This document shows positions 18,766 through 46,800 of a stretch of DNA of 64,000 nt, piece after piece; within the stretch, counting starts at the first letter, position 1; each line of letters opens with the position of its first letter. The translations under genes and the position numbers were made by a program. The notes under the pieces were generated by a model. The model saw only the letters and a list, made by a program, of their open reading frames with translations. It was not told the DNA's origin and ran no database searches. Source of the DNA: Marsupella aquatica (Eukaryota; Plantae; Marchantiophyta); the NCBI GenBank assembly GCA_973895155.1, contig OZ316894.1, positions 20,218,451 to 20,282,450 on the forward strand, given 5' to 3'.

Positions 18766-19066
18766 TGGAAATCATTCTGCTCTTCTTCTTGGATTTGATA
18801 AGCTTCCCAATTCACGTCCTCTAACGAGAAAGAGGAGGCTCTTCAGTTCTATATCTCGCGTTGGGAGGGGGGAAAAGTTTGCAGCAGGTTCACTTTCTTT
18901 GGAGAATCTAGTGACAACTCGCAGTGCTTCTTCACTCCAAGAGCTAGGAAGAGGAATTTGTGCATTTGTGCAGCTGTAGAAAGTGCAGACGATCTCTCAG
19001 GATACAGCATTTGTAGTCGTTTTGTGGGACGAAGCAATTTTATCGAGCTTGGTGGTGTCGCCCACC

Positions 19067-22000
19067 ATGGCAATCTTGGATGATTACAGTTCAGGGAACA
19101 GCGACGCTGTTCCTGAATCAGACAAACGGATTGGCGCAGAGCATAGTGATCCCGAAGTTATGAGACCGGATCTTGAAGGAGGAGGCGGTCCAGAAAATGG
19201 TGAAGAAAATGGTCGAGAGGATGGTCAATGTGTGGAGACGGGTGCCGCAGGAGCAGCAGCAGGGGACGGAAACGGGACTGCTGTTGAGAAGGTGCCCACC
19301 AAAGAGGAGGCTGATCTGAAGAAGGAAACGGTAGCGAAAAAGCAGCGGCAGTCCACAGTGCCGTTCATCAAATTGTTTTCGTTCGCCGACAAGTATGATT
19401 ACTTGCTGATGTTCGTCGGAAGTGTTGGCGCCGCTGTCCACGGTTGTGCGATTCCCATTTTTCTGCTGTTTTTCGGGAAGGTGCTGAATGGGCTTGGAGG
19501 GCAGCATGGGTCTTTGTCAACAAATACGATAAATACGGTACGTCATCTTGTCCCCGGAAACCTCCCTACCGTGCTTCGGAGCAAGGTCAAGCATCTTGCA
19601 AGCTGTTCGATTCAATCCTTCGGGTTCTACGTTGCCAATCAATTTATGCTCCGTGGCTCTTCCCTTCGCACATGGCATGGAAAGTATGTAAAGGGTACAT
19701 ATCGCAAAGCAGCAAATTACTTATGCAAATCTTTGGAACGGATGTATTGAAAGACAGCAATTACTTGTATTGCTCTGTTTGAACGGGATGTGGCTGGAGC
19801 ATTGGCAATTAGTTACGGAACGGTGCCCAGTTCCTCCGTTGCGGGAGGCCATCCTCTTCCTCGATTGAGTTTCTCTGCATCTCCTTGTGTGCTTCTTGTT
19901 TTTACCCATATATTACAATTTGGATGAATGTAACTGGAAAACTAGATCTCGTCATGATTGAGTCAAACAAAATGTATGTTAAATGCTGTGTCAGTATCCG
20001 GTCGCAATCAGGCTTTCTGTGGAGCCTTGCCCCTCGATTGATTTGTCATGTCTCAACAATCCTTCTTCCTTTTGGTGACAGACGTTTTGGCTTGAACTTA
20101 CTCCAAAACACCAAGAACAGCCATTCTCATCTTTGGCTATACATTTAACCTAGAATGCAGACCAATTAAACGTTACTCCGTTCGGAGCTTGAACGCCGGC
20201 TCAATCGATGCAATATTGCAATGCAATGCAGTCTGCGGTGGACCAGGGACAAAGTGACGGGTGTGCTGGGCGTTGATTGTATTATGGTCACCTAATGCGA
20301 ACGCTAACCACTCCCACGGGCGTTGTGCGCAGTATACATTGGACTTTGTGTGGCTGGGGCTTGTAACTTTTGCCGCATCATGGATAGGTAAAATCTCTCT
20401 CCGATTCGCATTGAAAGTTCCGTTGAATCTCTTCTGCTCCTTTGACAGTTCTCCTCAATTATTAGAGAGACTTGAGCGTTTCACTAAGCTTTCTACGACA
20501 GCACATGTTCTCTACATGCACGAGATTGCGTTGCATTTTGCCCCCGGCTTACGCTTTCTCGGGCTTCGGTACTTTCCGATGCAGAGGTGTCACTTTGGAT
20601 GCTGACTGGAGATAGGCAGTCAGCGAAACTGAGGACTAAGTACCTCGAGGCATTACTGCGACAGGATGTGGCGTTCTTTGATACTGATACCAACACAGGA
20701 GATTTTGTATCTAGCATTGCTTCCGAACCACTCATGGTGCAGGATGCAATCAGCGAAAAGGTACGCTCGAGATGATTTCTCGGGTCGGATATAATTACGT
20801 CCATGCTGAGCGCATTCCAATTCAGTCCCTGTATGTCTTTTGTTGGGCAGGGCAGGGCCTCACCGTTCTCTTTTGATTTCATTTGCAGATGGGTAATTTC
20901 ATCCACTTCATGTGCACGTTTGTTGCTGGGTTCGTCGTCGGATTTACCACCGAATGGCGCATTGCTCTAGTGACAATCGCCATCGTACCTCTCATTTCAG
21001 GAGCTGGGGGTACTTATGCATATACTTTGAGCCGTAGCACTGCTCGTGCTGCAGCTGCGTACGCCGAAGCTGGAACGCTTGCAGAACAGGTGTGTTAGCA
21101 TGCGTTTGTGTTTGTGTGAAATGTTGGTGCAAAGTACAGCCCTACTCTCCGGATTGATTTCTTTTATAAAAATAGTGATGATTGTACGGAGAATGTCTTG
21201 ATTCATCGTGTCCCATTTCCGCGCTGTTCGCCGTTACTTGGCACAAGATTTCAGAATTGCACAAAATAGCGCAGCACCCGTTGGCCCAATTAATTTACTT
21301 CGTAATTTTCAATCTTTCAGTGACTGCCGAGTATCGAATCAGATTGGAATGTCGCTTAGGTTTGGTGAATTTGCCATGGAATCCATCTTTTGCCAGCTTT
21401 TCAGGACATGAAACTCTTGACCGAATCTAAATGGTGTACTTCTCCGTCATTGTCAATGCAGGCTATATCTCAGGTGCGAACAGTGTATTCATTCGTGAGC
21501 GAATCAAAATTCATCAAGGCTTATTCTACGTCTTTAGAGAAGACAATGAAGCTGGGTGCAACTGCTGGACTCGCCAAGGGTATCGGAACGGGCTTCACTT
21601 ATGCAGTGATCTACCCCTCTTTTGCACTCCTCCTCTGGTATGGCGGTGTTCTTGTCCGCCAAGGCGCTATCAATGGTGGTCAGGCGCTGGCAAGTATTTT
21701 TGCAGTCGTGGTCGCGTCAACGTAAGTGAACATTCATCTCTCAATTATTCATCTTTAAGTATTTTAGAACAGAGGGTTGTCCTGTGCCACCACACTGTGA
21801 GCAATTGAGATAAAGAATGAGAGTTTAAATTCTCATTCTAAGGATTTTATCTTTGGTAACCCACTGACAAGGCAAGCTCTGGATCTGGATGTAGTGGAAT
21901 TCAAAAATTAGAAGAACAAAATTTCTAGATTGATAGGCGTTTGAATCTCTCGTGCTCCCCATTCAATCCTCCACTTTGGTTTTCCGTGGACTCTGAATCT

Positions 22001-25000
22001 CAATTTAATTCATTCAATTGAACCCATTGACTACAAATGCAGCGCTCTGGGCCAAGCAATGCCGAATCTCACCTTTTTCGCCAAAGGAAAGGCAGCAGGG
22101 TATAAAATTTTCAAAATGATCGATCATGAGTCCATTATCAATGCGGTTGACGAAAACGCCGAAACACTTGACGTGGTGGACGGTCATATCGAGCTCCGCA
22201 ACGTCGACTTTGCCTACCCCGCACGGCCAGATGTAATCGTCTTCAAAAACTTCTCCTTGGTCATCCCTTCGGGAAAGACAGTGGCCATCGTTGGAAGCAG
22301 CGGTTCTGGAAAAAGTACTGTTGTATCACTCATTGAAAGGTTCTACGATCCCGTTGCAGGTAATCATGAAAGACTCCTCCTGGTCGTTAGCTGTTTCGTA
22401 CGCTTACATCGGCGTTTGATTTTGATCCCTAGAGATTCAAACGGCTATCAATTCAGAAATTTTACTCTTTCAATTTTCCGCGAGACTGACTGACCGACCA
22501 TAATGGATTTGCAGGCGAGGTACTGCTAGATGGCTATGACATAAGAAAGCTAAACCTGAAGTGGCTCCGAGGGCGGCTTAGCTTGGTGAACCAGGAACCT
22601 GCATTGTTCGCGACGACTATTGCTGCGAACATTTTGTATGGGAAGGATAATGCCAGTCAGGAGGAGATTGAAGCTGCTGCGAAAGCTGCCAATGCTCATT
22701 CTTTCATAGAGAAACTCCCACAGGGCTATCAAACTCAGGTGAGTCTATCGTCCTCGCATTAATTTGAGATTGAGGCTGGAGGGATAGTGCCGACTCAGTT
22801 GTCAGCTACACTTTGAACGAAAGATTTAATTTGGCTATTTAGAGTATATCTACGTTTCCAGGGTTAGGCGGCATTTGTGCATATTTGGGAGAGATCTGGG
22901 TAAAGGATACATTTTAATATGGGTCAGTGATGGACGGTGTTAATGCAAGACGACTCTCACCGGTAAGGCATGGATACATTGAGCAAATGGAACGAAATGG
23001 AATTGAATGAAATGTCCACTAGGTAAGGAAACCATGCATTAGAAAATAGTCAAAACGGGGTCTTCTGAATTGTGGGCGATGAAATAACTGGTGGAAAGGC
23101 GGGAGTGCATCGAGAACAGGGTACCAGCGGATTATTCATTAAGGCGTTGGACAAATGTTTTTCTTACAAGGGGATCAACATCAGCTCAAAATGGTAAGGT
23201 AGATGGACTTGCTCCAATAATCCTGGCTGGTTGTGATGGACTGCTTCTGTTGGCATGACAGGTTGGAGAGAGGGGCATCCAGCTCTCAGGCGGTCAGAAA
23301 CAACGTGTAGCCATAGCTCGGGCCATGTTGAGGAATCCAGCAGTTCTATTGCTAGACGAGGCCACCAGTGCCTTGGACGCGGGGTCAGAGCAGATTGTGC
23401 AGGAAGCTCTGGATCGCCTGATGGTGGGAAGGACAACCATTGTGGTGGCACATCGGCTATCCACCATCCGAAATGCCGAGAGCATTGCAGTTGTGCAGCA
23501 AGGTCAAATAGTTGAAAAGGGTAGTCACCAAGAGCTCATATCCAGAGAGGACGGGGCATATTCTGCACTAGTCCGTCTGCAGGAACTGGCTGCAACGAAA
23601 AGTGGTAGCATGAGACGCAGCTCCTCTAGAATCGGCCAATCAGAAAGGTGAATTCTCGCTCATTGTTGTGTGGTTGGTTGTCTCCTGAATAGACGCTTCA
23701 AAAACTACTCTTGTCCTACTAGGCACCCAATTCATTGAATTCACGCATGTGTCAGTCTGTGTTCACTGGCAGGATAGTCTTCACCCTTCCGACATGCAGC
23801 AGGATGGTCACAGTGTTAATCTTGGTAGAAATTCTTTCTGATTGGAGATCCTTTCAAACCACTTTAACACTCGTGATAGCTTGCGGTAGTACATGACCGT
23901 GAATTTGAAGAGAATGGAACAAATGAAAGATCCTGCTTAGAGAAAGGAGAGGAAACATTTGCAATTGCCTTAACTGTTGATGGTGCTCAGAAAATTCTTC
24001 TTTGTGCAGGATTTCACAAGGGAGCCGCTCTGGTAAATCTTTCTCCTTTTCCATGATGCGTGGTGGATCTATTAAATCAGTAGAGGTGGGCGAAGCAAGT
24101 GAAAACCTCATCCAGGAGGAGTCGCAGGAAACTTCAAAAGGATCATTCACGCGGCTCATCGCAATGTGCAAGCCCGAGTGGAAATATGGCATAGGAGGGG
24201 TCATAGGATCAATGTTGGCTGGCTGTCAAAACCCTGCATTTTCTCTCATCATAGGGGAGGTGCTCACAGCGTACTACGAGCCCAACAACAAAATGAAGAG
24301 CGATATCAGCGTGTATGCGCTCATTCTAGTGGGTATTGGTGTATTGTCGCTGTTCATCTACGTCCTGCAACATTACAGTCTCGGAGTATTGGGGGAAAAC
24401 CTCGTCATGCGTGTACGAGAAAGAATGTTATGCAGTAAGTATCACTGCCGTCTTGCCCTTCGTCTTTCTTGCTAGGTCGTAATGTTACTGTGTATTACAT
24501 GCCCATATAAATGTCGTTCCTGTTATATCGACGTGTAATACATATGGATGTTGAAGACCCCACTTCACTGAGAGCATTGATCAACAAACTTGATCTCGCT
24601 TGTTTTAGGATAGATGTTTCTTTTCTTATGAAGTGAAGTGCCTGCATTTGAGAGTTGGGGATGCCGTGAAAAAAGGCAAGATAGCATATCAAAAGTAATA
24701 GGAAGATAAATTGCAAGAGAAAAGGCACAGAACATCAGCTGTTTGAAGTGGAATCGACTTGTACACCTTAACTTCAGTACTTCGCGACATTCCTGAAACC
24801 CATTGTTTTGCCTTATACCTCAAACCTTGTCATTCGAATAGTGGGTGATTCCCTCACCTACCAGGCCTAGCTTTAACGGTAAACGTGCTTGTGGCAGCAA
24901 TCCTTCGGAATGAGCTCGGATGGTTCGACCGAGATGAGAACAATAGCAGTCAGATACTAGCCCGTTTGAATTCCGATGCAACCAATGTGAGAGCAGCTAT

Positions 25001-26902
25001 TGGCGACAGGGCGGCCGTGATCTTGCAGAACACAATGCTTATATGTATTTCTTGGATAATCTCAATCGTTCTTCAATGGAAGTTGGCTCTCGTGATCATC
25101 TCTGTTAGTCCGTTGCTTGTGTTGTCAAATATGGCCCAGGTATGCGTCCTTTTCCCGTCCCTCTTCCAGCTTTGTCTCTACCCTTTCAATTACAACCACC
25201 TGTTACGCACGAGATCGAATTACTTAAACGTAGGAGAGCTATGGGAGGTCTAATACGCTCATGGTCCTGCCACAAGAGGCCGGACGTTAAACAAATTCAG
25301 AATCCTCTCGCTCAATCTCCTGTATTCCCCCACACATAGATACCCGTATTTGAATGCATCTTCGGTGGAAATGGGAGCAGCTTATTCATGTAAAAATTCT
25401 TTGTTCGGTCGGGTGATTCTAAAATAGGTAATCATGCTTTGAATTTTTCTAGAAGAATATAAAATTCTTTTTCTCTCCAAGTATGTAAGACTATAATGTT
25501 TCTTAAAGATAGATATTAGGGTTTTCTGCAAGTATTTAACGGACACAGGTTGGTACAGGTGGGTTTGGGGAGTGACGGTGATATTTATTTAAAAAGAAAA
25601 TAGACTCCTTGAGCGATGGTTGTATAGGAAAAAGCTTGATGAATTGGTTGATTGTTGCAGAAACTGTTTATAAAAGGCTTCTCCGGAGACCTCAGCAAGG
25701 CATACATACGCGCAACACAAGTTGCCGGCGAGGCAGTGACCAACATCCGGACAGTGGCAGCATTTCATGCTGAGGACAAGATCCAAGCTTTGTTTGCAAA
25801 AGAGCTGAAAGGTCCATCAGGCAGAAGTTTTCTTAGAGGACAGGTAGCTGGATTCGGGTTAGGACTTTCCCAATGCCTGATGTACTGCTCCTATGCATTG
25901 GGCATGTGGTACGCCGGCACGCTCATCAATGGCGATGGTGCCAAGTTCGGGAATGTGATCAAGGTCTTCTTAATCTTGATCATTTCTGCAACTTCTATGG
26001 CTGAGACCTTGGCCCTCACTCCTGATCTAGTCAAAGGAGGTCAAGCGGTGGAATCTGTATTCGAGGTGCTCGATCGAAAGACGACCATTGAACCTGAAGA
26101 TCCCGAGGGAGCGCAGGCAGATAAAATATCAGGAGAGATTCAACTTAAGAACGTTACATTTGCTTACCCTTCCAGACTCGACGTAGTCATCTTCAAGGAC
26201 CTGAACTTGAAGGTTCGGTCTGGTCACAGCCTTGCTCTTGTGGGAGCCAGTGGGTCAGGCAAGAGTTCAGTGATAGCTCTAATAGAGAGATTCTATGATC
26301 CTATTTCCGGGCAGGTTCTCATCGACGGGAAGGACATGAAGAAGTACAATTTGAAGTCAGTGCGTCGACACATTGCTCTCGTATCACAAGAACCGGCTCT
26401 CTTCTCATGCTCCATCTCCGAAAACATTCTCTATGGGAAAGATGGAGCCAGTGAGGCAGAGGTGATAGAGGCTGCGAAGGCTGCCAATGCCCACAAGTTC
26501 ATCAGCTCTCTTCCGGATGGATATGAGACTCAAGTAGGGGAAAGGGGCGTGCAACTGTCTGGTGGACAGAAGCAAAGGGTTGCCATTGCTCGTGCTGTGC
26601 TGAAGGACCCTGCAATCCTCCTACTGGATGAAGCCACGTCTGCATTGGATGCCGAGTCAGAGAAGATCGTGCAGGAAGCACTCGACCGGTTGATGAAGGG
26701 CAGAACTACGGTCATGATAGCCCACCGTCTCTCAACCATCCGAGGGGCTGACACCATTGCAGTTGTTCAAGACGGTACCATTCTTGAGGAAGGTTCCCAC
26801 GACGATCTCATTGCGAAAGGTGGCGGGTATGCCCGCCTCATCAACCTCCAAAACCGCCACCAGGAGCCGAGCCAGGAGTATGGTGAAATCTCGAGGGTTT
26901 GA
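19067..26902 (+). CDS. ABCB: Full-size ABC transporter B family (MDR/PGP, ABCB1/ABCB19-like), 11 exons, ~1332 aa
   Basis: Exons 19067-19537, 20333-20387, 20585-20760, 20889-21089, 21462-21721, 22043-22359, 22515-22738, 23262-23647, 24010-24434, 24898-25139, 25661-26902. All introns are GT-AG, phases are consistent, total 3999 nt. Start context CCACCATGG. Two Walker A ([16 protein letters not shown]), two LSGGQKQR signatures, two [23 protein letters not shown] layout. Confidence 0.96.
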
Positions 26903-29900
26903 GGGGAAATCTAGAGGGATTGAAGGAGATCCTTCTCGTTCTCGTGAAACCTACTGGAAATGAGGGAAAATTTTCTGGGTCTGCTGAAAGCTCCTGGGAT
27001 GGAAGGAGAATTGTGATGGGGAAAACTGTTTTTTCTCCTCTCTGTTCTTGCTCAACCAGATCGTCGTCGCGTCGCTGCCGTTGTTCTTCTGCATTGTTCA
27101 GACAGGGCTCACTAAAGCTCGCCTAAACTGTCTGATGTAGCTCAGATCTTAAGGGCAGATATTGGAGGCAGGCTATAGGGAGGACGTTTTTGCCTTTTGT
27201 GTAGTGACGCGCCTGTGCGAGCGCCTGAGGAGCAATTTTGAATTCATATTTCTTTCGGGACAACTCTTCACAAACCAACATTCGGATTTCCTCCCAACCT
27301 CGAGAATGATCAGGCATGGGGTAAATCCTACGACTGATGCCTATTCTACTTCAACTATACCGGTGGCCGACTTTTTCATGAGATAATTTGGACTCTTCGT
27401 CAAGGGGGGCGGGCTTGTGTGGGTGTAGTTGGTGAGCTTCTGGGGAACTGTGAGTCCCACATTTGCTCCGCATCGCTTGTTCATTCGTTGAGTCTTCTCT
27501 CTGGACGTGCCTGAATTCAGCACGTCTGCCTCTTTGGCTCTCAGAGATTTAGGATCCTGTCTTTGCTCCGCGGCCGGTCGGTCTCTGGCGATTTACCTCG
27601 TGTATATCTATCCTTTTGAGTCATTCAAGCATTGTCACTGGGAAGAAAAGTTGCCAAGATTCGGGAAATGTATCCGTGAAACATTTCACGTGTGCCTGTC
27701 CCCCACCACCCTGGTTACAATGAACTACAGTAGCCCATAGCTGAGCATCAAGTTGACAAATTTAGGATTGCGTGGCCAGTATAGCATGATTGAGGCAAAG
27801 GTGAGATTTTAGAGCCCAAGAGATCTACAGTCGACCTCTGGGCTTCGTGCAACAAGTGCAGCATAGATAGGCTTGTAAACAATCGTGTTCCCAACAAGAA
27901 TTCCCTTGAAGGTAGGGAAGGAGATGATTTGCTAGAGCACCCCACCCTCTAGAGCGACGATCTACAACTTAGAGTTCTTGATTAGATTTGGGCAATGTCG
28001 TCTGAGGAAATGATTAGATATGGGCAATGTCGTCTGAGAAAATACATAGTTGGTAAGACCTCGATAACCTGGCCCTCCAAGAAGAACCAAGGAGAGAAAA
28101 TCGGTTTTCGTTTCCAATCATCTATAGGTCAAGCTGCATCTGAAGCCGAGACTTGTCACACCTTTGTGTCTAGTCGGATTTCAATCCAACCCAATTATGG
28201 AAAGAAATGGAGATATGAAGAAAATAGAGACACATACAAGTTTGTCTTCAATTGGCGTTATTTTGGAAAATATTAAGTGACAAATTTCATAACACGGGGG
28301 ATGCCTTTTTCTTTGTGTCGAGACGGAGTCACTCTCTGTAATAGCTGACCACAAGATAGTCGGTTCATTCTTCAAACGAAACATTGGTCTTGCCGAGTAT
28401 CAAGAGTGTCTCTGCCTTTTGCTGGAAGATATCGAGGAGCAAACCAAAATTGCTGTTTGCTTGAGACTCCCAGAGTACAACAAGTTTGACCAAGCGGGGA
28501 TTGACGTGGAGTTGGAAAAGACAGAGAAGTAGAGAGATTTCACTTCCCACCGACTACTCAATGAAGACATCCGTTTCCCAATAACACCAGAAGTAGTTTC
28601 TAGAGATACTCTTACCTTCTACTTCACGAGTATTTTTGAGTGGAGTAAGGAAGATTTTGTTTGAGACTTCATCGTAGGGAGAAAAGGGGAGATCCGTCCG
28701 GGAAATCTGCCAGAGGAAGTTAACGACAAGAACGAAAAGGAAATGTTCAGTAATCTTCTGAATGAATATAAATCAGTGACTTTGTTTGAAAGAAAATCCT
28801 TTGAGCTGGCAACACTTCGATGTAAATTAGGACCTGATGACTACAAATGCCGAGTCTTTGATCGGAAATACTGTGAAGTTCTGAAGGGCTCAATGATGGG
28901 TCATTCTTCCCTCGCACTCGAGTAGACTCGAGTCTACCTCGTTCCAGTCGAGTGGGATGTAGGCAAAGCTGAGAACGATCCATTCTACAATGGAACTCCC
29001 TTCAAGTCTTGACCAACACTTGAAGATGTGAAGAACTGCTACTTCTGGATAATTGGAGGACAACATACAATTGAGGCTTACAAATTGCTGATTGCCGATC
29101 CGAAATTTGATTCGAAAAAAAGAGAGGAACTCCTCATGGTTACAGCCACTCTCTTCTGGACACCGTTCAATCTCGTTGAGAATACGAAGATTATGGGCCT
29201 CTCACAAGCTTTGAACAACATGAACAAGGCAACAATGCCAGAAAGTCAGTGCCTTCTGATGGCAAAGCAAGTCAGGAAAATCTGGGTGTCGGCCGAGAGA
29301 CCACCATCATTGAGCGGACAAAAAGCAAAGTCAATGTGGAAAGTATATTAAGTTGTCTTTGACTTGGGTCATTTGATAAATAATTGCAAGAGCTCGAGCC
29401 GCGGAACAGTGTTCCATGGGATCCTGAGATCTTCATTATTCTTATCTTTCTCACTCTGCTTTCTACATTTGCAGCCATTTTGTGTCGCGGCCCATATTGC
29501 GTACCCAACAGCTGTCATGGTCAATGGAAACATGAGATTCATCGAGATGGCACCGTTTTTGTTTGAGATGAAGGACAACACGTTTGAGCTCTGGATGGAA
29601 GTTCAACGTCTCTCAGAAGATGGTCTGCTCGTCCACTCAAATAAAGTTCTCCAGCACATAGCAAAGCCATATCAGGATAGAACAACGTGGCATCTCCGGA
29701 GAAGGTTTTTCCGGCATATGCAAGGTCTTGAAGATCGAGATCTGAAAAAGCTGGCAAAGTATTTGATTTTGAGAGAGAAGGTGTCGCTCTTCCCGAATAG
29801 GACGAATGACAAGAATTACGACCCTGTTCAAATGGAAGGGTGGAGGTCACTTGAGGAGTTTTGCCTCGAAAAAAGAATAAGCATATTTTTGAATGCATAT

Positions 29901-31259
29901 TTTTGTTGGAGTTCACTAAGAGAAGCAAAATCAACGAATTCCGCATTTTGAGCAAAGATGAAAGGAAGGAGAAGGTTGCTGACGTTCGCAGCTTTTCCAT
30001 ATTGATGGGCAGCGGATGCATATGCTAAGGGAGTTGCTACCTCCTGGCCTATATCAATCTGGAAGGCTCAACAACATGAATTGGGCAGAATCGATCGATC
30101 TTATTCCGGCTTCTTTCAAAGGTTTGGTCGACTCAATTTCAAGATCTGTCGACCGGAACGGAAATTTGCTTGTGGTGAAAAAAAATGATCTGTTTCATTT
30201 GCAATCAATTGAAGGGTTTGGAGGAAGGAACTTTTTTGATGGTTTGTCCCAAACCTATGAGAATACACCGGTGGACCTTTTCTATTTTGATTCGACGAGG
30301 ACATCTGAGTATGGTCTATACGACCATCATTTCTATCGTCGGTTTTTCCAAGCAACTTCTACTATTGGAGGTGCGCGACATAAAGTTGTGTTGATAGTCA
30401 ACCCTTTGGAGATTATCGACGTCATGCGAGGCATCACTCCAACAAAGAAATACATATGTCTCCCCGCCCAACTCACTTTTTGGAGCTCCAAAAAAACAAA
30501 AATGACATCTTGTTAGAAGTAGAAGGCCGAAGAACACAGTATGTCTTGTATTCCTTTTTTGATGAAGCGTTTGTGACTTCGACGCTTCCCGAAGAAAAGG
30601 AGTCATCTTTGAGAGACTCCTTGAGGGGGAAGCTTGCAAATTATGACGAAGTCGACGTTGCGGAGAGTCTCAACGACGAGAAAACTGCCACATATTTTTC
30701 ATATCTTGTGAAACTATTTCTATCCTCTGGTGATTCCGTTGTTTGTTTTGGTGACAATCGTCGTCTCATTGAATGGTAAGTGTGATTTCTGAATTTATTT
30801 AAATTTACATGTTTCTCGCAAGTTTAAACTCAATTCGATGACTAATGAACACAATTGATTCTCTCACATAGGGGAATTCTATATTTGTGACAAGTTTCTG
30901 CCCTGTCGAGAGCCACGACCTCTTGTCTGACTACTTCAACGCATTGTATCCGTCGTTCGAAGAGCCAAAATGTCCGAAGCGTGAGACATTTGAAAACCTC
31001 CTCTGGAGAAAGATTTTGAAGAAGAAGTCAAATTTTGAAGTGAGGGACGATATCCTCGACATACTCAACGAGAGCTATCAACTCACGTATCATCAAATAG
31101 AGCATGTCATCAAGGAGTATGGGTTACAAGAGCAGCCTGATAACAATGATGATTGCCTTCTCTACTCCCTTCCTCAGATCCTTCCATCAGGACCTCTTGG
31201 CGGTACGTGTTTTTAAAGTTAAAGTTGATTTTTTGTTTATGTGATCATGCCATTGGAGT

Positions 31260-32100
31260 TAGAGATTTGCCGATGGAACTATGTTCTACGGGGCTACCCT
31301 AAATTTGTGGACGGAACAGTGTTTCGCGGGGTTCTTCTTAAGTCTTTGCTGATGGAACGGGTTTTCCGCGTGCTTAGTCGGATTTGCCCACAAAACGCTG
31401 TTCCGCGGGGTTCTTCGTAAGTCTTTGCCGACGGAACGGTGTTCCACGCGCTAAGCCGGATTTTCAAACGGAAAGCTGTTGCACGCGCTGAGCTTGGGGG
31501 TTTCACTTCCACAAAAATGGCATATCACGTGCGACGAAGGATAGGGTCATTTTATTGGTTGTAAGGGAAGACTTAAGAATTTTTGTAGAAGAACTATAGG
31601 GTCTTTTAAATTCAATTTTGAGACTTATAAGAACATTAGGGCCTTTTTAATCCAAATTTTGGAATATTCCAAGAATATTCCAACTTTATAGGGGTTAAAA
31701 AGTAATTTTTTTTCTTACATTTTAGGGGGTCCAAGGCCTAAAAACGTCGCAGGTGATGAGGAGGTCCCCATGTAGTGAGACCCCCGAGGCGCCGAGTAGG
31801 ATTTGTGGACGGACTGGTCTCCCGCACACTTAGTTGGATTTGCGGACAGAACGGTGTTCCGTGCGCTTAGTTGGATTTGCGGATGGAACGGTGTTCCGCG
31901 CGCTTAGTTGGATTTGCGGATGGAACGATGTTCCACGCGCTTAGTCGGATTTGCAAACAAAATGGTGTTCCGCGCGCTTAGTCAGAATTTTGGACAGAAT
32001 GGTGTTTTGCGCGCCTCTTTGGATTTGCGAATGGAACGGTGTTCCGCGCGCTTAGTCGGATTTGCAGACGGAACGGTGTTCCGCGCGCTTAGTAGGACTT
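31260..32100. repeat. 37-bp CpG-rich tandem repeat array in an intron, split by a MITE
   Basis: Unit TTAGTTGGATTTGCGGATGGAACGGTGTTCCGCGCGC (TAGTTGG at 31831, 31868, 31905). Internal inverted repeat GGAAC-GGT-GTTCC. Confidence 0.9.
31493..31788 (+). mobile_element. 296-bp MITE of the P-like family
   Basis: TIRs CTTGGGGGTTTCACT / AGTGAGACCCCCGAG (13/15). TSD GCGCTGAG (31485-31492) / GCGCCGAG (31789-31796). The right end is homologous to 4033-4096. Confidence 0.85.
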
Positions 32101-33759
32101 GCTGGTTTTGTTAATTAAAACAATTTGGAACTTACCTACAAATGGATTTGGGTGATATTAGGTGTTGACCCTCAGACGCATTCAAGCAAGAGATTACCTA
32201 GTCCATTGAAGAGACTCGATTACCACAATGAGGAATTGGAGTCGGGTGACAAGAAAGACCAAGATAAGGAGAATGAGAAATCTGAACGCGAGGAGGAGGC
32301 AGATGATGATGATGACGGGGATGATGACAAGAACGACGATGAGGACGATAATGACTCGCAAAGGGGCGAACAACGTTCCAAATCCAGATGTGATCGTGAA
32401 GGAAGCAATTTACATTCTGATGGGGATTCCGAGAGCGAATCAGCGAATGCAGATTTTGGGAATGAGGGTTGGTCACCAGGTGGGGAGAGTGAAAAGTCAG
32501 TAGGAGATTCAGAGGATTCTGAAAGTCGGGAAAGAGAAGCCAAAGTGTTGAGGAAAAGAAGGCGGAGTTAGAGAAAGAGCTTGAGTTCGCAGCAAAAAAA
32601 CTCAAATTTGACTTGAAGTCTGCCTCAGAATCAAAAAAGAATGCTAATGAGGACGAAACCTTAGGGAAAAAAGAAAAAAAAGTATACGTGTCAAAAAAGA
32701 AAAACAAAAGAAAACTGAAGAGTTGGAGAGGAAGGAGCGACAGAAAAAGGAACGGCAGGAGAAAGTGGAGAAGAAGAGCAAAAGCAGAGAGAGGAAAGGG
32801 AGAGGAAGGAAAGGGAGGAGAAAGATAAGGAGGAGGAAGAAGAGAGAAAGGATCGAGAGGAGAAGGAGAGGGAAGAGGGTGAACGGAAGCAAAAGAAAGA
32901 TGACGAAGAACAAGAGGAGGAAGAGCATGAGGGGGATGAAGACAACGAAGATGATGAGAAGGAAGAGGAAGAAGGGAAGAGGAAGAAAAAGAAAGATGAC
33001 AAAGATCAAGATGAAGGGAAACAAGAGGAGGAAGAGCACAAGAAGGAGGAAGACGAGGGGAAGGAGGACGATGGAAAGGAAGACAAGGGAAAGGAGGAAG
33101 ACAAGGTAAAAGAGGAACATGAAGAGAGGGAGAGGAAAGAAGCCGAAGAGAGAAAAGAGAGATTTATTTTATACATACATAGATGTATCACGTCCAGAGA
33201 TATTTCAGGTCGTATTGCCACTTAAGCGCTGTGCATTGATTCATAGTTCATCATAAACATAGCATCCACTGTTTTGTTTCATACATTCAGGATACATGTG
33301 CGCCATATGCATGTTAGAGACAGCTCTATTCAGTAGAAACCAAATGCTACTATTTACCATATATCAATATATTTCTCATCCAAGTTGATCACGACGACTC
33401 CTGTTCGACTCTGTTTTTATTAAGTATAGAACCTATAGACAGGTTTTATATTACCACGCAGCATTGCTTAGCGCCATACTGGGTGTATGCTGGGTGACGG
33501 TGTTACTTCAATGCTGTGTCCACAGCATCAAGCATAGGCCGTAATCTATTCCCGGGAATGGACGGACTATATCCATTCACTTATCCAGTGTCTTCATTCA
33601 GCCCCCACCACTGGATCGACATTAGTCTTAGGAAACATAATGTCTGGTCCCATGTTTCTGCAGCATTGTCTAGACGGCTGCGGGGAGACATGGGCCAGAG
33701 ATAGAGTAGTCACATCAGCTTTATTCCAACATTACATTCTTCAGCTTTCAACCGGGCTT

Positions 33760-35900
33760 TCAACATTGCCTGTAATAACATGAATAGACGGAAACAGAAA
33801 TATCAGGAACAGTGTGTGTACCTGACTGAGTGGAGACCTGGTAACAAGAGTAGTGTCTCCTCTCATCATCACTGTCCACCTCCGGCAAATTTTCAGCGTG
33901 AGTCCACTCATGACTTGAGGACCGTGTGTGCTCAACAACTTTTGAAGTGACAACGACCACCAAAGGTGCCTCCACAACTGGAGATACTACAATTATGACT
34001 GATGGTACTAACTCCTCCTTGATGGTGACCAGCCTCTGCTTGGGAACGTCCACTACGGGCTCTTCCCGTTTGGTGACCAACTCCTTTGCAGGGGTGAACT
34101 CAAGCGGGTCAACCGCTTCCGTGGCGAGAAAGTTGACGTTAGCTTCTTTGAGTGGGGGTGGTGGCCCCTTCTTCTCTGGTGCTCCGGCTTGTTGAGCCTT
34201 GATTGCTTCCAAGGTTGGACAGTGTGGTGCAAGATGTCCCTCCCCCTTGCACAATTGACACAACCGGGCAAAATCTCCGTTCCCTTGACGTGTGGGCTCC
34301 GGGCACACGTTAGTGTAGTGGCCAGCCACTCTACAATTGTAACAAATAGGGATCTTTCTTACCCCCGGATACGGTGGCCTATTCCCAGGAGTAGCGTTGG
34401 AGTAGTTGGCATATGGGGGTGCTCCAGCGTTAGTTGAGATCCCATGAATGCTCCTTGGTCCCGGGTTGAGCGGCTGCACACTATACACATTGGCCTCCGG
34501 TGGCTCCTCCATGAAGTACTCGACTAGCCCCTCCGCTGCATAGGAAGAGGTTGAGTAGCTGGCTCCTTCAACGTCCTCCTCTCGTACTTGGAAAACCTTG
34601 GCTGGTTCTCCCGCTGGACACTCCTTCGGGGCATGACCAAACTTCATGCACTTGGTGCACCACACGTTGGCTCTCTCCACTGGAACCTTTCTCCTCTCTG
34701 GCTTGAGACCTGCAAAGTGCACCTTCAACGCTTTCATTTGCTCTGTCAACTCATCATACCTGGCCTCTTGCTCCTTGAGACGTCTTGCCGTAGACAATGG
34801 GGTAACGGCCACCGTGGGTAGCACAACTTCTCGATGAGTCAACTTCTTGGCCTTCTTGGACAACTTCTTCTTCCTCTTCTTTCGCTTCTCAGCTTCTGAC
34901 TTCGTAGTGTCTGACTCCATAGTGCTCTCAGAGTCCTCGGATTCATCACTACCATCCGACTTGGATTCACTTGATTCCTCACTAGAGGAACTGTCCACAG
35001 GCTTCAACTTCTTTCTTCGACAGCGCTTGCTCGTGGCATCGGTGGCAGTGTATGACTCCGCTGCTGCAATAGCCTCAGCCAATGTGGTTGGCTTGGCCTG
35101 TCGTACAAAGAACCCCATCTTGCTTGGTAGGGCAGCTACAAACCACGCTTGTCGCATAGCATCATCCGTACGGGCTTGTATCCGCCGTACTAGCTTCTGA
35201 AATCTTTGCAAGAACCTCCGTAGCGACTCTTTCTTCTTCATTCTAAGTTGACCCACCTTCAACAGGGATGTGGCTTCCACTCCAATAGATTGGAACTCCT
35301 TCAAGAATGCTTGCTTGAACAAAGCCCAATCAGCTTTCACGTTGGGTAGCAACGAGATGAACCAGGGGCCTGCCTCCCCCCTCATCATTCCAGGAATGAT
35401 AGTGAGCTTGTGGGCAGATTCTCCATTGGCTTTAGCAATCCTTCAACGTCTTATTCGTCTGGGTCATCTTTTGGTCTTCCCTTGAAGGGTATGTACTGAA
35501 CATGGGTATGTTGAGCAGCTGCCATTGGTGCAGCTGGTCCCTGTATCAACACAGGCGGTAATGGCGTATGTTGGGCCACTGGTAAGGGCAATGCTGATAG
35601 GTGTGAGATGATTTGTGGCAATGCAGTGAGCTCTGGGATCAGATTTGGCCGTAACTCAGACTGCACCAACACAAAGGGCTCCCCTTCTTCTAGCACATGA
35701 TCTACGTCTGGCTCTTCGTCTGGACGTATGGCCTCATTGTGTTGAGACCCTTCTTGTGGCACACCAACTTGTTCTTCTAGCTCCCGTGGCAACCTTCTCT
35801 CTTCTGCAAGCCGTAATCGTCCTTCGGCAGCAACCCAAGAGGGCACTCAGTCTAGCTCAGGCGTACGTGAGTGTTGGGGGCTTGCTCTTCCTCCCCTTCT
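33760..35900 (-). pseudogene. gag: Ty3/gypsy gag (capsid plus three CCHC zinc knuckles), frameshift/stop near 35450, no pol downstream
   Basis: Retrotrans_gag-like MRGEAGPWF...WALFKQAFLKEF...KESLRRFLQRF. Knuckles CTKCMKFGHAPKEC, CYNCRVAGHYTNVC, CQLCKGEGHLAPHC. No protease, RT or integrase motifs follow. Confidence 0.85.
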
Positions 35901-36129: not shown

Positions 36130-36147
36130 TCCCCGGCAGCGGCGCCA
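36130..36147 (-). promoter_or_regulatory. Primer-binding site, tRNA-Asp type (Athila/Tat-like)
   Basis: Minus strand TGGCGCCGCTGCCGGGGA, one mismatch to the canonical TGGCGCCGTTGCCGGGGA, about 19 nt from the LTR end. Confidence 0.85.
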
Positions 36148-36166: not shown

Positions 36167-38719
36167 TGTCACCTGCTTATCAAATGATTTACACAACAAA
36201 TACGTGTTTCCTCCTACTAAAATCGTTTGTTATCGTATGACGGGAACGTGGAGGGACACTATTAGGATTCTATTGCATGTAGGATGAGTATGTTTGATTC
36301 CGCTCCCGGAAGTGTAATTTTTGATCAAGTCTACCGACTAGCCCCTCTATTTTTGATCAAGTCCCATGGACTACGCCACACACACACTCCTACTGGTCGT
36401 TGGTGGAGTGCTGTCACCACCCCCTCTACTCACACGGTCGACCAATCCGTGCAAGTATTCCTTAGACACTTCTTGGGAAAGAACCAAAACTTGAGGAATC
36501 AAACCAAAACCATATCTTTTGGCAAAAAGTGGTAACACATTGCAAGGACAACCCGGCCTCTTGCCGTCTGCCCAACTCTTGCCTCACTAGGGCAAGCGCT
36601 ACACCTCTACCTCACTACTCTGGCTCTAATTTCCCTTCTGGCTATGAGCTAACTTCCCTAACACCAACACTAGACTGAGTTCCCCCCCCTCACTACTACG
36701 GGGCTCTCCCCCTAAATACTCAAAACAACACACCAAAGCACCCCTCACGGGATCACCATGGTGGCGGCCACCCTAGCGGCGCCGCTAAAATCCTGCATAA
36801 ACTTTCACACAAGAAAATCCCTAATCCTAAAGCATGCGGCACACACATGCTCCTAAAACCCTAATCTAACAATGGGACCGACGGTGCCTTCGATAGTACC
36901 CCAACATTGCTTTGTGAACCGCAAAAAATGCAAGGGACCCCACAATTGCCGAAACTAGGTGCCACTCTGATTGCACCTCTGAGCTCACCCCTGGGTAGCC
37001 CTACTCCCCCTGACCATGAATCACAAAACCGCTCTCGAAACGGACGCCAAACGACCAAGTTATGGCCGGTTCAGTATCACTTACTTACCAACTTCGTCGG
37101 GCCCTAACTTACTCATCCTGGCTCCGTTTGAAGAGCGCCGCCTCTTGTTGGAATCAGCTCCGCGAGCTCTTTCCAACAAGCCCGTGAGTGTACTCTTCCA
37201 AAAAGTTTCAAAATCCAGAGGTCGTAAGATAGGCCCGTACGGCTACCCTAGTCCTCCTCCTCATCACTCAGGTGCCCTGACTTGAGCCCCGTGAGTTGGT
37301 CTCCTCATCAGTCCTCCTCCTCACTCACGGTGCCTTGGCTTGAGCCCCGATCCTCCTGTTCGCCACCACCGGTTCGTTGTAAAAGGAGGGGGCCCCTATA
37401 ATTGTCGAAACTAAAATTTTCTCAGAATTCATTTTCTGAAAACATATCTGAGGAGCCCTCCTCTTCTTGATCACGGCTCCATAAATGGTGCACCAAACGG
37501 AGGTCAAACGGCCAAGATATGATCGTTTAAGTTTTTACGGGGCACCGTCTCCCTTCGTTTCGTCCGTACAATACGTTTCCCCCGGCTTTGCAAAACACGG
37601 ATCACGGTTTCCCCGTATGTGCTACTACCTCCTCCTTCCCTTGCAAAGCCGGGACCTCCTTCCATACGGACGTCCGTACGGCCTCAAAACCCTCGTATTC
37701 TCAAAAAATGCGATTTGTCGTATCTCCCCTGTCTTAGCTCCGTTTTGGCCGTGTGACACATCGTTGGATTCAGCTCGGCGAGCTCTTTCCAACAAGCCCA
37801 TAGACTGATTTTGAGATGGTAAAAAATCTGATGTTTGTACAACCAGGGTCCGTACACACGTTCAAAGCAAGCACAAGAGGGAAAGGGTTTAGGTATGGGT
37901 ATGGGTGGAAACCCCACAAGTGAGAATAGAGAAAGAAGGGAATGAAGAAAATATGAGGGCCCCTTCTACGGATGTGTTCTTCTACAGAGTGCCCCTCTAC
38001 GGAGTGGGGAAAAGAAAGAGAACAAAAACCATGTGAGGACCACACAAAGGGTGAAGGGGAACAGAAGTGTAAGAACCCCTTCCTTCTAAGGGCCCTCCCA
38101 CCATGACTACTCCAAGATTGCCTAGTTTGTCGTTTTACGGGCATTGAGGTCCCTCGAGATGTCACTGTTTGATATAGACCTAAAATCAACTAGAGAACCT
38201 CAGTTTCACATGGGGCTCATTGAGGGCTTCAAAATGAATCCAAACATGATCATGTTTGGAACAGTACTAGCACAACAATGTCTATTTTAAATTTTAATGT
38301 TTTCTATATTTTGGTCATTCTTCCCGTTTTTCGTCTTATGTGGAGCCTCCTACCAGCCCCCACCCCTCCAAGATGCCCACACCTTGGCTCCAAGTCCTTG
38401 GGTTGCCTTGTGGCCTCCTTGTACCCCCTCAATGGTTCCCTGTCATACATCACCGTCCGACACCCCTCTCAACTCCGGTCTTCGGTTGTCGTATCCATTT
38501 ATTGATATTAACAAAAATAAAAAATTTGAAAATCCAAATACTTTTATTATATTTATTTGTCTTTCTATTTATATATGCAATTATAAATCATCACTAAGTT
38601 ATTACTCGATTTGGGACCTTGCACAATTTATAATTAAATTAAATTAAATTAAATATTAATATAATATATAAATATAATATATAAATGTATTTGTGAATTT
38701 TTGGAAATGAAACATTACA
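36167..38719 (-). mobile_element. 5' LTR (~2.55 kb) of the Ty3/gypsy element; partner LTR not found in window
   Basis: The minus strand runs TGTAATG...GTGACA adjacent to the PBS. Internal duplicated motif CAGCTC.GCGAGCTCTTTCCAACAAGCCC at ~37155 and ~37770. The outer boundary is inferred from the TG..CA ends only. Confidence 0.65.
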
Positions 38720-40838: not shown

Positions 40839-43800
40839 TGTTAGATATTGCTCTAGTCTTGTGACTCATGAGCTAACCACAGTTAGTCTAACTCGGGTTA
40901 GGATTTAGCTAATGTTAGCGGTAGTGCTGTTGTGCATATAGCCAGGGCTGATGCTAGACCCTGGTGGAACTTAGGCTCATTGTTACAGAGCTAGTTGAGA
41001 GATAGGGAGAGCTTGTGCTGTGGATGCTTGGTATGGCCGATCGGCCTAGAGTGCAGTAAAACTCTTGTGTGTGTTCCCTTGGACGTAGCCTCATGTGGAG
41101 GTGAACCACGTATCTCTCTGTGTCGACTATTGTGCGTTGGATGGTTCATGGGCTTGCCCTTGCAAATGTCGTCTATGCTCAACAAGTGGTATCAGAGCAT
41201 GCCTGGGAGGTGACGAGGTTTTTTCCAGCGTTCGTTGTCGGTGGCACATTCAGAGTTTCATCGTCACAAGCTATGGAGCTTGTTCACAACTGAACCGGGT
41301 TTATCTTCGTGACGTCCGACCCGGTGAAAGAAACGCGAAGTGCTACGGCTCAACGGTTTGATCGTGGCGAGGCGGTCATTTTGAGTCCGGGATTGGCACT
41401 TGACGCGGAGTGAAGGCGTTGCGACAAAAAGTTTTACTCTGCTGGGAGTAGCAGACTGTACCATCGCAATTCATCAACTTTACCCATCGGCGGTGGTCAC
41501 TTTCCTCAAGCAAACGGCAAGGCAAGAGTGTCAATTTTTGCTTTGAGTGGAATTTTGAATTATTTTTAGGTTACTATAAGGTGATTTTTTCGTGTGCCCC
41601 GACCCTTTAGTCACCTCGCACAGTTCGCGGTTGCGAAGCAACCGCCCTGATTTTTCGCCCCACCTTTTCTTGCTGTGCGACGCCGGTCGTCGCTACTCCT
41701 CCTCGGCCCCGGTTTGTTTTTTTACACGTACGCGGCAGCGTACGCCCTTGTCCTCGCGAGTTACTACTACTCCTGGCCCCGTATGCGCGACCCCGGCCAT
41801 ATACATGGCGTATTTTTGGCTTTAAGCGACTTAAGGGCCCCCTTTTGGCCTATTTTTAACCTTTTTTGCTTCCTCTTGGTTTTCCTCTTATGCCGGGACC
41901 TGCCGCCCTCCATTTTAACCGCTCCGACAGGGGGAACGGCCCCCTGTGAGACCTATTGGACTGTGCAGGAATATTCCCCAAAAACAGAGAGCTGTTTTTT
42001 GGCCGTCCAACAAAGATTCCGTCCGCCGAACGATAACTTTTTTGGTTCTTTTTTGGTGAGGACATTGCCACTGGAGTTAGCAACGCGGCACACCAATCAC
42101 ATCACGATTCCGACGATGGGTTGTACTTGGTATTTCGGTTATTCTCCGAGGTGGTCAAAACGGGGGAGTTTCCCAAGGTTTTACCCATCCGGACCGAAAT
42201 TTAAATAACTTTTCCGTCAAATTTTGATTTTGATTTCGGCTTTCAATATTGGACTCCTAGCTTCGTGGGCTATGCGGTGGTGTTGAGTTTTGAGTTTTAT
42301 GAGAAGTTTTGAAAAAAAGACGTTTTTTTGTGATTGTTTCATATGAGTGACTCGAAGGATACTGGAAGAATTGGCGTCGGTGGAGCTTCAGGATCGCGAC
42401 GATCAAACGGAGAGTCTGAGGAGGAGCTGCTACCATTTGAGGAGGAACAAGTAACACCGGTACGATCACCGGTGCGGCGTGCAGTGGAGGAAGCTGTACT
42501 ACTACCAGAGCTGTTGGTAGTTGGGAAGAAGAGGGAGATGGCTAGATTCGGAGGAGTAAAGTTTGAGGTTGAGAAGTACGATGGTGGTACTGATTACTTG
42601 TTGTGGGAGAAGCAAGTGAAGGGTGTTCTTCGGGCCATGGGCTTAGCTCATCTGCTCTCTTCGCGAGAGCAGTATGATGGAGAGGAGGAGATCTCAGAAA
42701 AGCAATGGAGACAGGAGCAGGTGATTGCTGTTAATACAGTGATGCTTTATCTGAAGCCGCACATCATCAAGCAGCTGGATGATTATGCGGATTGCGTATC
42801 ACTGTTCAAGGCTCTAAGAGAGAAGTACTACCGGGAAGATGCGTCAGATCGGCTGTACAAGAAGTCTCTCTTGATGAGCCTCAGGCTCAAGGAAGGGAGC
42901 AAGATGCAAGATCACCTGGATGAGTTTGACAGTCTAGCGGTGGATCTGTCAAACCTGGGAAAAGGAGTTGAAGATGAGGATAAGGCCTTGCTTCTGCTAA
43001 GCTCCTTACCGCCGTCATATCAGGGCTTGAAACAGGTGCTCTTGTATAGAGATCTAAAGTCCATTTCGTATAATGAGGTGGTGAGCTCTTTACTATCTGA
43101 TGATGCTTAGAAGAAGTTGGGTCAATCACAGACAGCATCTTCTTCTGGCACTGCGCTCAATGTGAACAAGGAAAGAGTAGCGCAGCGCACGAATGGGCAG
43201 AACAGGTTTAGATCTACATCACGGGGGAGATCTAAATCCAGAGAGAAATCGCAAGAGAGGAAGCTTCTTGCATGTTGGAATTATGGCAAGCCTGGCCACA
43301 TGAAAAGGGATTGTCGAGTAAAGGTCCCTACTGCATCTGCTAACGCGGCATCGAGCTCGCATGAGGTAGATTTACTCGATGATGATGACATATTGTGATG
43401 TCAAGGTTATGCTCTCAACGTAGTGTCAAATCTAGGGAGTGATGACTGGATTCTAGATAGTGCATGTACTTTTCACATTTGCTCTAGGAGAGATTTTTTC
43501 AGTTCTTACACGGATTCCAACGGGTCAGTGTTGATGGGAAATGGAATCCCATGTCAAGTTGTTGGACTTGGATCTGTAAGATTTCAGATGTTTGACGGTG
43601 CTATGAGAACGGTGAGGAATGTGAGACATATTCCCAGCATGATGAAAAATCTCATTTCACTTGGAGTTTTAGAAGCAAATGGCCATCAGTGGAGTTCTGC
43701 TAATGGTGTCCTTCAGGTTTCAACTAGTACTAAAGTTGTATTGAAGGGAAAGAGACATTGCAATCTATACATTTTGGAGGGCAGTGTAGTCTATGATGAA

Positions 43801-46800
43801 GCCAATGTAATTAACCTTATCTCATGAGGAGATGGCCCGGCTGTGGCACTTTCGTTTGGGTCACATGAGTGAAAAAGGTTTGGTTATTCTTCAGAAGAAA
43901 GGATTACTTTCTAATTTGCAATCTTGTAAGTTGGAATTTTGTGAGCACTGTGTGCTTGGGAAGCAGCACAGGAAACCCTTCGGAGTTGGAACTCACACCA
44001 GCAAGGAGGTACTTGAGTATGTACATAGTGATGTGTGGGGTCCAGCCCCTACTCCCTCACATTCTGGACGGTTATACTATGTCACGTTCATAGACGATTA
44101 CTCAAGGTATGTGTGGATATACTTTCTACACAATAAGTCTGATGTTTTTGCCACTTTTAAGGAGTGGAAAGCCCAAGTTGAGAATCAGACTGGTAATAAG
44201 GTGAGATATCTTCGATCGGATAATGGCGGTGAATACGGTTCCCGAGAATTTGGAACGTATTGTAAGGAGCAGGGGATTACCCGCCATCTCACAACAAGTT
44301 ATACTCCTCAGCAGAATGGTGTTTCTGAGAGACTCAACCGAACACTATTGGACCGCTCAAGGAGTATGTTGAGTCATTCATGCTTACCACATGAGTTTTG
44401 GGCTGAAGCTGTCAACACTGCAGCTTATTTGGTAAATTTTTCTCCATCAAGTTCTATTGGATTCAAGACGCCATTTGAAATGAAATACGGGCGTCCAGCA
44501 GATTACTCACATCTGAGGATTTTTGCATGTGATGCTTATGTGCTTACACCTTCCCAGCTTCGATCCAAGCTGGAGTCCAAGTCGAAGAAGTGCATTTTCC
44601 TTGGCTATCAGAAAGGTGTGAAGGGTTATAGGTTATGGGATCCAGTAACCTGTAAGTTAATTGTCAGTAGAGATGTGTCCTTTAATGAATCCAGATCATC
44701 AAAGGAGGGGGAGAGTTCTCAGGACTCCCATACTGACAAGGGGAAATCTCCCATCCCGGACCGGGTTGAGGGGGAGATTAGTCATGATGCAGTTCATAAC
44801 AGGAGAGATGGAGAAGCTCCGGGCTTGGAGCTGGTTCCTGTGATGGAACAAGAGGAGCAGATTGTTGTTGGGGTACCTCAAATTCAGCCAGCAGCAGCAA
44901 CAGATCAGCCTGAGTCATCTACTAGAAGAACTTCCAGTCGTTCTACTAGAGCTCCTACCAGGTATGGTCAATGGGCAGACTCATCTAAGCTAGATGATAT
45001 TGACATTGCACCTGATGATGATGACATGGCTTTGATCTTGGAAGAAGGAGAGTCTTCTTCGTACAGTGAGGCTTGTGCTTCAGAGCATAAGCATGAGTGG
45101 AATGCAGCAATGCAAAGGGAGTTGCAATCTTTGAGTGACAACAAGACATGGGAGCTGGTGGAGCTTCCAAGAGGTCAGCAAGTGGTGGACAGCAAGTGGA
45201 TTTACAAGTTGAAGGACAGTCCTTCAGAGGGTGGAGATAAGATCTACAAGGCAAGGCTTGTTGCCAAGGGGTTCACTCAGGAGAAAGGAGTGGACTACAA
45301 TGAGGTCTTTTCACCGGTGGCTAAGTATTCCACAATTCGGATCTTGTGTCAGCTTGTTGTGTTTTTTGGTCTGGTGATGGATCAGATGGATGTTGTTACT
45401 GCTTTTCTCTATGGCAATTTGGAAGAGTTGATCTTCATGAGACAGCCACTAGGCTTTATAAAGAAAGGCCAAGAGAACTTAGTTTGCAGATTGCTCAAGT
45501 CCTTGTATGGATTGAAGCAGTCTCCCAGACAGTGGAACAAGCGGTTTGATGATTTCATGCTTGCTCAAGGTTTTACAAGGATGGTGTATGATCCTTGTGT
45601 GTATACGAAATCAGTCAAGAATGATGTGTTTGGTTTCATCATTCTAGTGATCTATGTGGATGACATGCTGATTGTGGCTAAAGATCAATCTGAGGTTGAC
45701 AGTCTCAAGGCAAAATTGAGTGCTGAATTCAGGATGAAGGATCTTGGTAAGGCCAAGAGGATCTTAGGGATGGAGATTTTTAGGAACTCTGATACTGGAC
45801 AGTTGTGCTTGAGTCAAGGCCAGTATGCGAGGAAAGTACTTGCACAATTCAACATGGAAAACTGTAAACCAGTGTGTATTCCTTTAGCTTCACATTTCAA
45901 GTTATCATCGGCTTTCTCTCCTACGGATGCTATGGAGAAAAGGTTTGATGGCTAAGATTCCTTATGAGAAGGCAATAGGCAGTCTGATGTATTTGATGAC
46001 TTGTACTAGGCCTGACTTGGCCCTAGCAATGGGCAAGGTTAGCAGATTCATGTCAAATCCAGGGAAGGTACACTGGGAAGCTGTGAAGTCGATTCTCAGG
46101 TATGTGAGGGAAACACAGGACTATAGATTACTATTTGATAACAGATCAGATAGAATGTTAGTTGGCTATGTAGATTCTGACTATGGAGGCTGTTTGGATA
46201 CAAAGAGGTCTACAACTGGGTTTGTATACACTCTTGGAGGAGGATGTATCAGTTGGAAATCTACCTTGCAGAAGTGCATTTCTCAGTCTACTACAAAAGC
46301 AGAGTATGTTGCAGCAGCAGAAGCAGCAAAGGAAGCAATTTGGTTGGATAAGTTGATTGCGGAGATGGGTTTAGAGCATGGAAAAATGACTCTAAACTGT
46401 GATAGTCAGAGTGCTCTTCACTTGGCTGCTAACCAGGTGATGGATAGCAGGGTGAAGCACATTGATATCAGGTACCATTTTATCAGGCAAGCAGTGTCTG
46501 ATAAAACTTTTGAGCTAGTCAAGATTGATGGAAAGCTCAATCCCGCTGATGTCTTTACCAAAGTGATTCCTTTGGAGAGTTTCTCAAGACACCGTGCTAC
46601 TTTGCAGGTTTTGCAGTTGTAGTGCAAGTAGAGTTATTTAGCAATGTGTGACTATTTGTATATGGATTACTCATTCCTGTTAGGCTACGGCTTAGTTCTA
46701 GTTAACCCTTAGTTAACCCTTGTGGATTTTAGGGGGAGACCTGGTTTGGTGATTGTCTAGAACTTCCCGCTGAGGATTCCATATGATAGCATTTAGTCCA

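Follow-up and report, generated by a model that had tools for sequence, protein, structure and literature searches.

The stretch analysed here, 64,000 nucleotides of the liverwort Marsupella aquatica (contig OZ316894.1, positions 20,218,451 to 20,282,450, hereafter the window), carries on its plus strand a defective copy of a spliced gene that exists in multiple copies; intact relatives of this gene are predicted to unite a probable ParB-like domain with a methyltransferase fold devoid of its catalytic motifs. We propose that this gene is the antisense cargo of the adjoining long terminal repeat (LTR) element and that its product was a DNA-binding regulator of that element, an account to which, taken as a whole, we give an even chance. 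The protein family is apparently undescribed; retrotransposon methylases and antisense open reading frames (ORFs) are each already known. Our literature search, whose coverage stopped short of subscription journals and supplements (notably that of PMC4738411), found no description of a ParB plus beta-class pseudo-methylase family in plants, and the accessible part of PMC13468544 makes no mention of antisense ORFs.

A dead copy of a multi-copy gene

Six-frame reading combined with splice checks resolves the window gene into four exons separated by three GT-AG introns (Table 1). This copy is dead: it has 4 stops and about 6 frame breaks, and is cut at its 5′ end. The stops lie in exon 1 (28530, 28662, 28923 and 29010), exon 2 displays three frame changes relative to an intact homologue plus another break at its end, and two further breaks affect the acidic tail, in which aspartate and glutamate make up 33-46% of two of the three pieces. 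The sequence-only reading had described a decayed but spliceable gene converging on a gag, and this description holds, with about 530 bp between the two stops. The motifs on which it relied are all present on the plus strand (CRVFDRKYCEVLKGSM at 28848-28895, VYLVP at 28932, WIIGGQHTIEA at 29046-29078, VDLFYFDS at 30271-30294 and EK..YFSYLVKLFLSSGDSVV starting at 30678), and the gene end that it placed at 33160 has to be moved to 33225.

Introns 1 and 2 are backed by diverged copies, and intron 1 also by the Calypogeia gene models P0052, P0019, P0018, P0021 and P0023, which read across it; for the putative intron 3 and exon 4 the support is the window sequence by itself. The 5′ truncation is deduced from diverged contigs that run on upstream and from homologue P0003, which has about 70 additional N-terminal residues. 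In run X2, the left flank is a single contig without differences that ends at 28325, and the diverged contigs begin at 28299 and extend upstream by up to 3.5 kb. A weak tblastn extension reaches 28203, and the truncation point lies somewhere near 28200-28300.

The window gene is a member of a multi-copy family with graded divergence and stop-free homologues. Four sequencing runs from two studies, one run possibly made from the same sample as the window, contain 0.43-0.58 of its words. Contigs aligning to 27300-31260 number 112, 144, 122 and 161 per run, with identities graded from over 99% to below 90% (read depth over the gene is no measure of copy number and did not serve as one). Together with the gene models found in Calypogeia, these contigs show that the gene is not single-copy. 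Among diverged copies C>T and G>A are the commonest changes; the 28 exonic differences shown, of about 685 listed, fall on third (12), first (9) and second (7) codon positions and are uninformative.

Among 1.84 billion representative proteins, 39 matched at E<=1e-3. The 20 that were looked up comprise four Calypogeia models, two entries called ‘hypothetical protein’ and 14 unnamed ones, and a cluster member provided a fifth Calypogeia model; the only named relatives are these five gene models of the liverwort Calypogeia fissa. The Calypogeia fissa loci concerned are CAM6103508, CAM6093214, CAM6112859, CAM6113017 and CAM6097985. Two stop-free exon-1 homologues, P0003 and P0004, terminate at the window gene's intron 1 donor. 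Distant members (P0037, P0038, P0039, P0041 and P0043, 28-35%) have the G-Q-H-S/T ParB-like core in common and the same W-K-V intron-like end position, and their N-terminal regions differ. P0052 covers exons 1-2 and overlaps P0019, which extends into the C-terminal domain; therefore the ParB-like and methylase-fold domains belong to one protein. Word-indexed protein searches gave no match to exon 1 among longer proteins and none to the middle of exon 2. No related locus appeared in the metagenome and viral contig scans, phage tblastn gave no match below E 1, alignment A7 compared with bacterial genomes matched 0/30, and no RNA runs carrying the gene's words were listed.

Two predicted domains and their missing motifs

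A ParB/Srx ancestry of the exon-1 domain is likely, judging from profile comparisons. Against 48 bacterial ParB domains, hhalign aligned 94 columns in register at E 4.6e-4, the best of 30 shuffles reaching 0.14; with a second alignment it gave E 0.002-0.003, the best of 13 control families reaching 0.039. Moreover, ParB ORFs account for 8 of the top 50 among 2184. The G-Q-H-S/T core occurs in 13/13 rows covering the motif and the ParB arginine (GxxR) in 0/13. What had been called ParB-like from the letters alone thus exceeds all controls in hhalign (E 4.6e-4 to 3.3e-3); it has no match in Pfam and no structural model.

For the C-terminal part of exon 2, a beta-class amino-methyltransferase fold is supported by the predicted structure of an intact homologue: a permuted Rossmann-like arrangement with motif IV on the N-terminal side and motif I on the C-terminal side. 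The top structural matches all belong to this one methylase class (CcrM 6pbd, M.MboIIA 1g60, M.BceJIV 8urk, M.RsrI 1eg2, M.PvuII 1boo and the rotifer N4CMT 8s9n, at 8-12% identity), and a gap separates them from other folds that bind S-adenosylmethionine (SAM). The methyltransferase-like character claimed by the sequence-only reading therefore stands as a predicted fold; in sequence profiles it did no better than controls, and neither PF01555 nor a set of 32 bacterial members gave a profile match.

The catalytic (D/S/N)PP(Y/F/W) signature is present in 0/6 sequences, which read FDGT, FDST, LDCS, LDST, FYAS and, in the window, FDST. The SAM-binding FxGxG is likewise found in 0/5 (FGEG three times, FSEG, and FGDN in the window); none of these sequences keeps DPPY or FxGxG. 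The motif-IV aspartate is retained in 5/6, and F-G/S-E-G in 4/4 intact homologues. These motifs were indeed missing as had been proposed from the sequence, but ‘eroded’ is not the right word: as read from the aligned sequences, their loss is family-wide and extends to every stop-free homologue, and is not decay of the window copy. Because of this replacement in every stop-free homologue, we regard the family as a conserved pseudo-enzyme.

The adjoining element and the competing explanations

No protease, reverse transcriptase or integrase follows the gag, and the window copy has no pol, in agreement with the gag-only element previously described. Upstream of the gag lies a primer-binding-site (PBS)-like motif, TGGCGCCGCTGCCGGGGA, which we take to resemble the 3′ end of tRNA-Asp. 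The stretch proposed as LTR (36167-38719) adjoins it and possesses TG..CA ends; a second copy is absent from the window. Read in six frames, neither the spacer between gene and gag nor either flank matched any Pfam family. A single deletion would account both for the truncation of the gene and for the missing 3′ LTR. From this layout, we consider it fairly probable that the gag-only LTR retroelement next to the gene carries it as antisense cargo. The CpG observed/expected ratio is 0.82 in the gene and 0.72 in the LTR-like part, versus 0.21-0.39 in the CACTA, P-like and copia parts of this one window; the retention common to gene and LTR-like part counts in favour of the cargo reading, and it is a weak hint at shielding of the element.

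Several observations weigh against this account. Within the window the element shows neither a second LTR nor a polypurine tract or target duplication, and linkage of the gene to the LTR family was seen in no second copy. Between the PBS-like TGGCGCC... at 36147 (minus strand) and the end proposed for the LTR there are 19 nt, the usual distance being shorter. The gag differs from the gene in CpG ratio (0.51 versus 0.82) and GC content (0.52 versus 0.43), and the CpG comparison comes from a single window. On the protein side, Pfam, NCBIfam, PHROGs and PDB sequences yielded no meaningful match to the gene. The hhalign probabilities for ParB are just 10-33% (33% with the 48 bacterial domains, 10-13% with the second alignment), and the exon-1 model failed (predicted local distance difference test, pLDDT, 31.5), its fold search being uninformative. 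The methylase fold comes from one AlphaFold2 model built on a 10-row alignment with a domain pLDDT of about 50-86; in the corresponding hhalign test, methylases (E 0.076-0.086) scored no better than controls (0.051-0.096), and they supplied 1 of the top 50 where about 3 were expected.

Part of this evidence would suit a gene derived from some other mobile element, be it a DNA transposon, a Helitron or another retroelement, and brought beside a gag-LTR fragment by nested insertion and deletion. Nested transposable elements are dense in the window, the differences in GC and CpG and the missing second LTR and linkage would follow, and introns are equally well suited to a DNA transposon. We nevertheless find this history unlikely: it requires two truncations where the other account needs one, neither inverted ends nor a transposase or helicase turned up between or beside the gene and the gag, the CpG profile of the gene differs from that of the window's DNA transposons, and the layout agrees with that of OTA elements. 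Three introns, annotated Calypogeia gene models and an undepleted, host-like CpG could alternatively evoke a domesticated liverwort gene family, for example of accessory factors for chromatin or methylation; many of its copies would then be pseudogenes, and the retroelement would be incidental. The many near-identical, fragmentary and dispersed copies, their predominant C>T and G>A changes, the partial and scattered state of the Calypogeia models and the 5′ truncation of the window copy make this highly improbable.

The residues that persist raise the question of an active enzyme with rewired motifs, which would bind SAM through F-G-E-G and the motif-IV aspartate, methylating or binding modified DNA or RNA, or would turn over a nucleotide at the G-Q-H-S/T site. 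The fold is kept, these residues are shared among homologues to the extent given above, and retrotransposons carrying active 5-methylcytosine methylases exist. Yet the PP-aromatic part of motif IV, which positions and stacks the flipped base, is missing in 6/6 and is freely variable (GT, ST, CS, AS), and METTL14 and the DIRS1 methylase are inactive precedents; we hold this explanation to be improbable. That both folds are mis-assigned, the protein being an unrelated alpha/beta accessory protein of a transposable element, would fit the silent sequence libraries, the negative methylase profile test and the low ParB probability, but is barely credible given that the structural matches fall in one methylase class, set off by a gap from other SAM-binding folds, and that motif order and spacing are consistent.

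If the gene is antisense cargo of the LTR element, a prokaryotic or phage ParB-methylase fusion would have been taken up by a mobile element of a bryophyte and would have acquired introns there, which could outlast retrotransposition because they are antisense to the genomic RNA. Both active-site signatures are replaced throughout the family, whose frames are still open down to about 28-35% identity. By analogy with METTL14 or the inactive DIRS1 methylase, the family protein is probably a DNA-binding scaffold, regulatory or anti-silencing rather than an enzyme. The ParB-like, helical and methylase-fold parts may hold DNA, perhaps the tandem repeats or the LTR of the element, while the acidic tail may engage chromatin, thereby keeping host methylation off the element or raising its transcription. 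The window copy itself is dead. One could go further and suppose that a captured phage-type fusion, once disabled, became a spliced antisense decoy or reader directed against host DNA methylation, including the liverwort N4-methylcytosine (4mC) system, in which the enzyme, too, is of the beta-class fold; this extension we rate as doubtful. If true, it would represent a retrotransposon-encoded anti-methylation factor derived from a bacterial methylase.

Table 1. Features of the window gene and of the adjoining element (MITE, miniature inverted-repeat transposable element)
Feature	Position	Strand	Support
Exon 1, 5′-truncated: N-terminal alpha/beta region and likely ParB/Srx-like domain (~28800-29300)	28293..29342	+	61-62% to stop-free P0003/P0004
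Intron 1, GT-AG, 132 nt, phase 0	29343..29474	+	diverged-copy joint 29346-29464; spliced gene models from Calypogeia
Exon 2: helical middle part followed by a predicted beta-class amino-methyltransferase fold (~30180-30775); motif IV FDST, motif I FGDN	29475..30775	+	
Intron 2, GTAAGT..AG	30776..30871	+	letters differ in diverged copies; joint 30774-30859
Exon 3, 110 codons, without family match	30872..31202	+	covered by diverged contigs
Putative intron 3 with 37-41 bp tandem repeats (31310-31445, 31795-32102)	31203..32161	+	
MITE-like insertion inside the intron 3 repeat array	31493..31788	.	15-bp imperfect inverted ends, 8-bp target duplication (7/8 alike)
Putative exon 4: long acidic/basic low-complexity tail, stop 33223-33225	32162..33225	+	sequence only
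Ty3/gypsy-type gag, zinc knuckles, broken once near 35445	33760..35850	-	Retrotrans_gag PF03732, E 1.4e-9
PBS-like site TGGCGCCGCTGCCGGGGA	36130..36147	-	
LTR-like stretch bounded by TG..CA, with short repeats inside, adjoining the PBS-like site; ends unverified	36167..38719	-	

The rest of the window is plant-like: it contains an ABCB transporter gene rich in introns, one copia and one CACTA element, and a long ORF resembling a transposase. The transporter gene (18980-26902), apparently intact and multi-exon, is the only clear host gene. The long ORF (1035-3449, plus strand, 804 codons) has no Pfam match and presumably resembles a P-element/THAP9-type transposase; its putative right end (4033-4096) is 88% like the right end of the MITE-like insertion in intron 3. 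A Ty1/copia element (40839-46914) contains gag, integrase and reverse transcriptase, with two 85-nt terminal copies 99% alike and a full LTR on the left only, and a related LTR piece lies at 7578-7792. The CACTA element (49300-57500, minus strand) displays Transposase_21, DUF4218 and DUF4216, further ORFs at 49300-51900 and an upstream ORF (56823-57494) with NSD-like PHD fingers. Two arrays complete the picture, one GC-rich, with 21/21/16-nt units and open in six frames (8430-9730), the other diverged, with units of about 500-577 bp (61500-64000).

Comparison with known systems

The plant family shares with beta-class amino-methyltransferases the predicted fold and the order of motif IV before motif I; it is distinguished from them by the absence of (D/S/N)PP(Y/F/W) and FxGxG, by its multiple copies, by its position behind a ParB-like domain and by its acidic tail. 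For the papers cited below, our statements refer to the accessible part of each text. Marchantia DN4MT1 keeps TSPPY and belongs to a two-gene host locus (bioRxiv 2021.02.12.428880), whereas in the multi-copy plant family this motif is replaced. With this family, a prokaryote-type amino-methyltransferase fold would have reached liverworts a second time, apparently in a separate event; in this case it would have come on mobile DNA, joined to a probable ParB-like domain, and have persisted as a pseudo-enzyme. The domain order ParB-like, helical linker, beta-class methylase is also that of prokaryotic ParB-N and N6_N4_Mtase fusions such as L144 (G008:C4:51000-53600), a 730-codon bacterial frame with ParB_N, a helical linker and N6_N4_Mtase. 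There all motifs are intact (GHHR, DPPY, FAGT), while the plant gene contains introns and extends further at both its N and C termini; the likeness seen is one of domain order. ParB-terminase loci offer another prokaryotic case for comparison (PMC4738411).

Antisense ORFs and tandem arrays are known from Retand/OTA elements (PMC11963269, PMC6317226). The OTA eORF-3′R (Retand TRP28, the Ogre plant mobile domain, Athila ORF1) likewise lie antisense and 3′ of gag, with tandem repeats and possibly in non-autonomous elements. None of their Pfam domains matches the plant gene, which is a putative prokaryote-type two-domain pseudo-enzyme with three introns, on an element without pol. Such extra ORFs of plant gypsy elements are mostly without known origin or fold, and the traceable fold here makes function testable. 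Retrotransposon methylases include active DNA methyltransferases of Symbiodinium and Klebsormidium elements (PMC5890265, PMC6338049, PMC12344493) and the likely inactive N6A-methylase copies of DIRS1 (PMC4738411), and transposon methylases were lost from tracheophytes (PMC6338049). As proposed here, these place a methylase fold on a mobile element; unlike the plant gene, they are PCIF1-like or C5 enzymes encoded in intronless sense-strand ORFs, without ParB.

With regard to function, METTL14 and MTA9 illustrate how a dead beta-class fold can serve as a scaffold, a functional analogy only, no active partner being known for the plant family. VANC, encoded by a transposable element, binds its own element against silencing (PMC5735166); it is likened to the plant family in proposed function, with no homology claimed. 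Should the protein indeed counter host methylation, retrotransposons would have their own equivalent of VANC, in the plant lineage from which 4mC is known.

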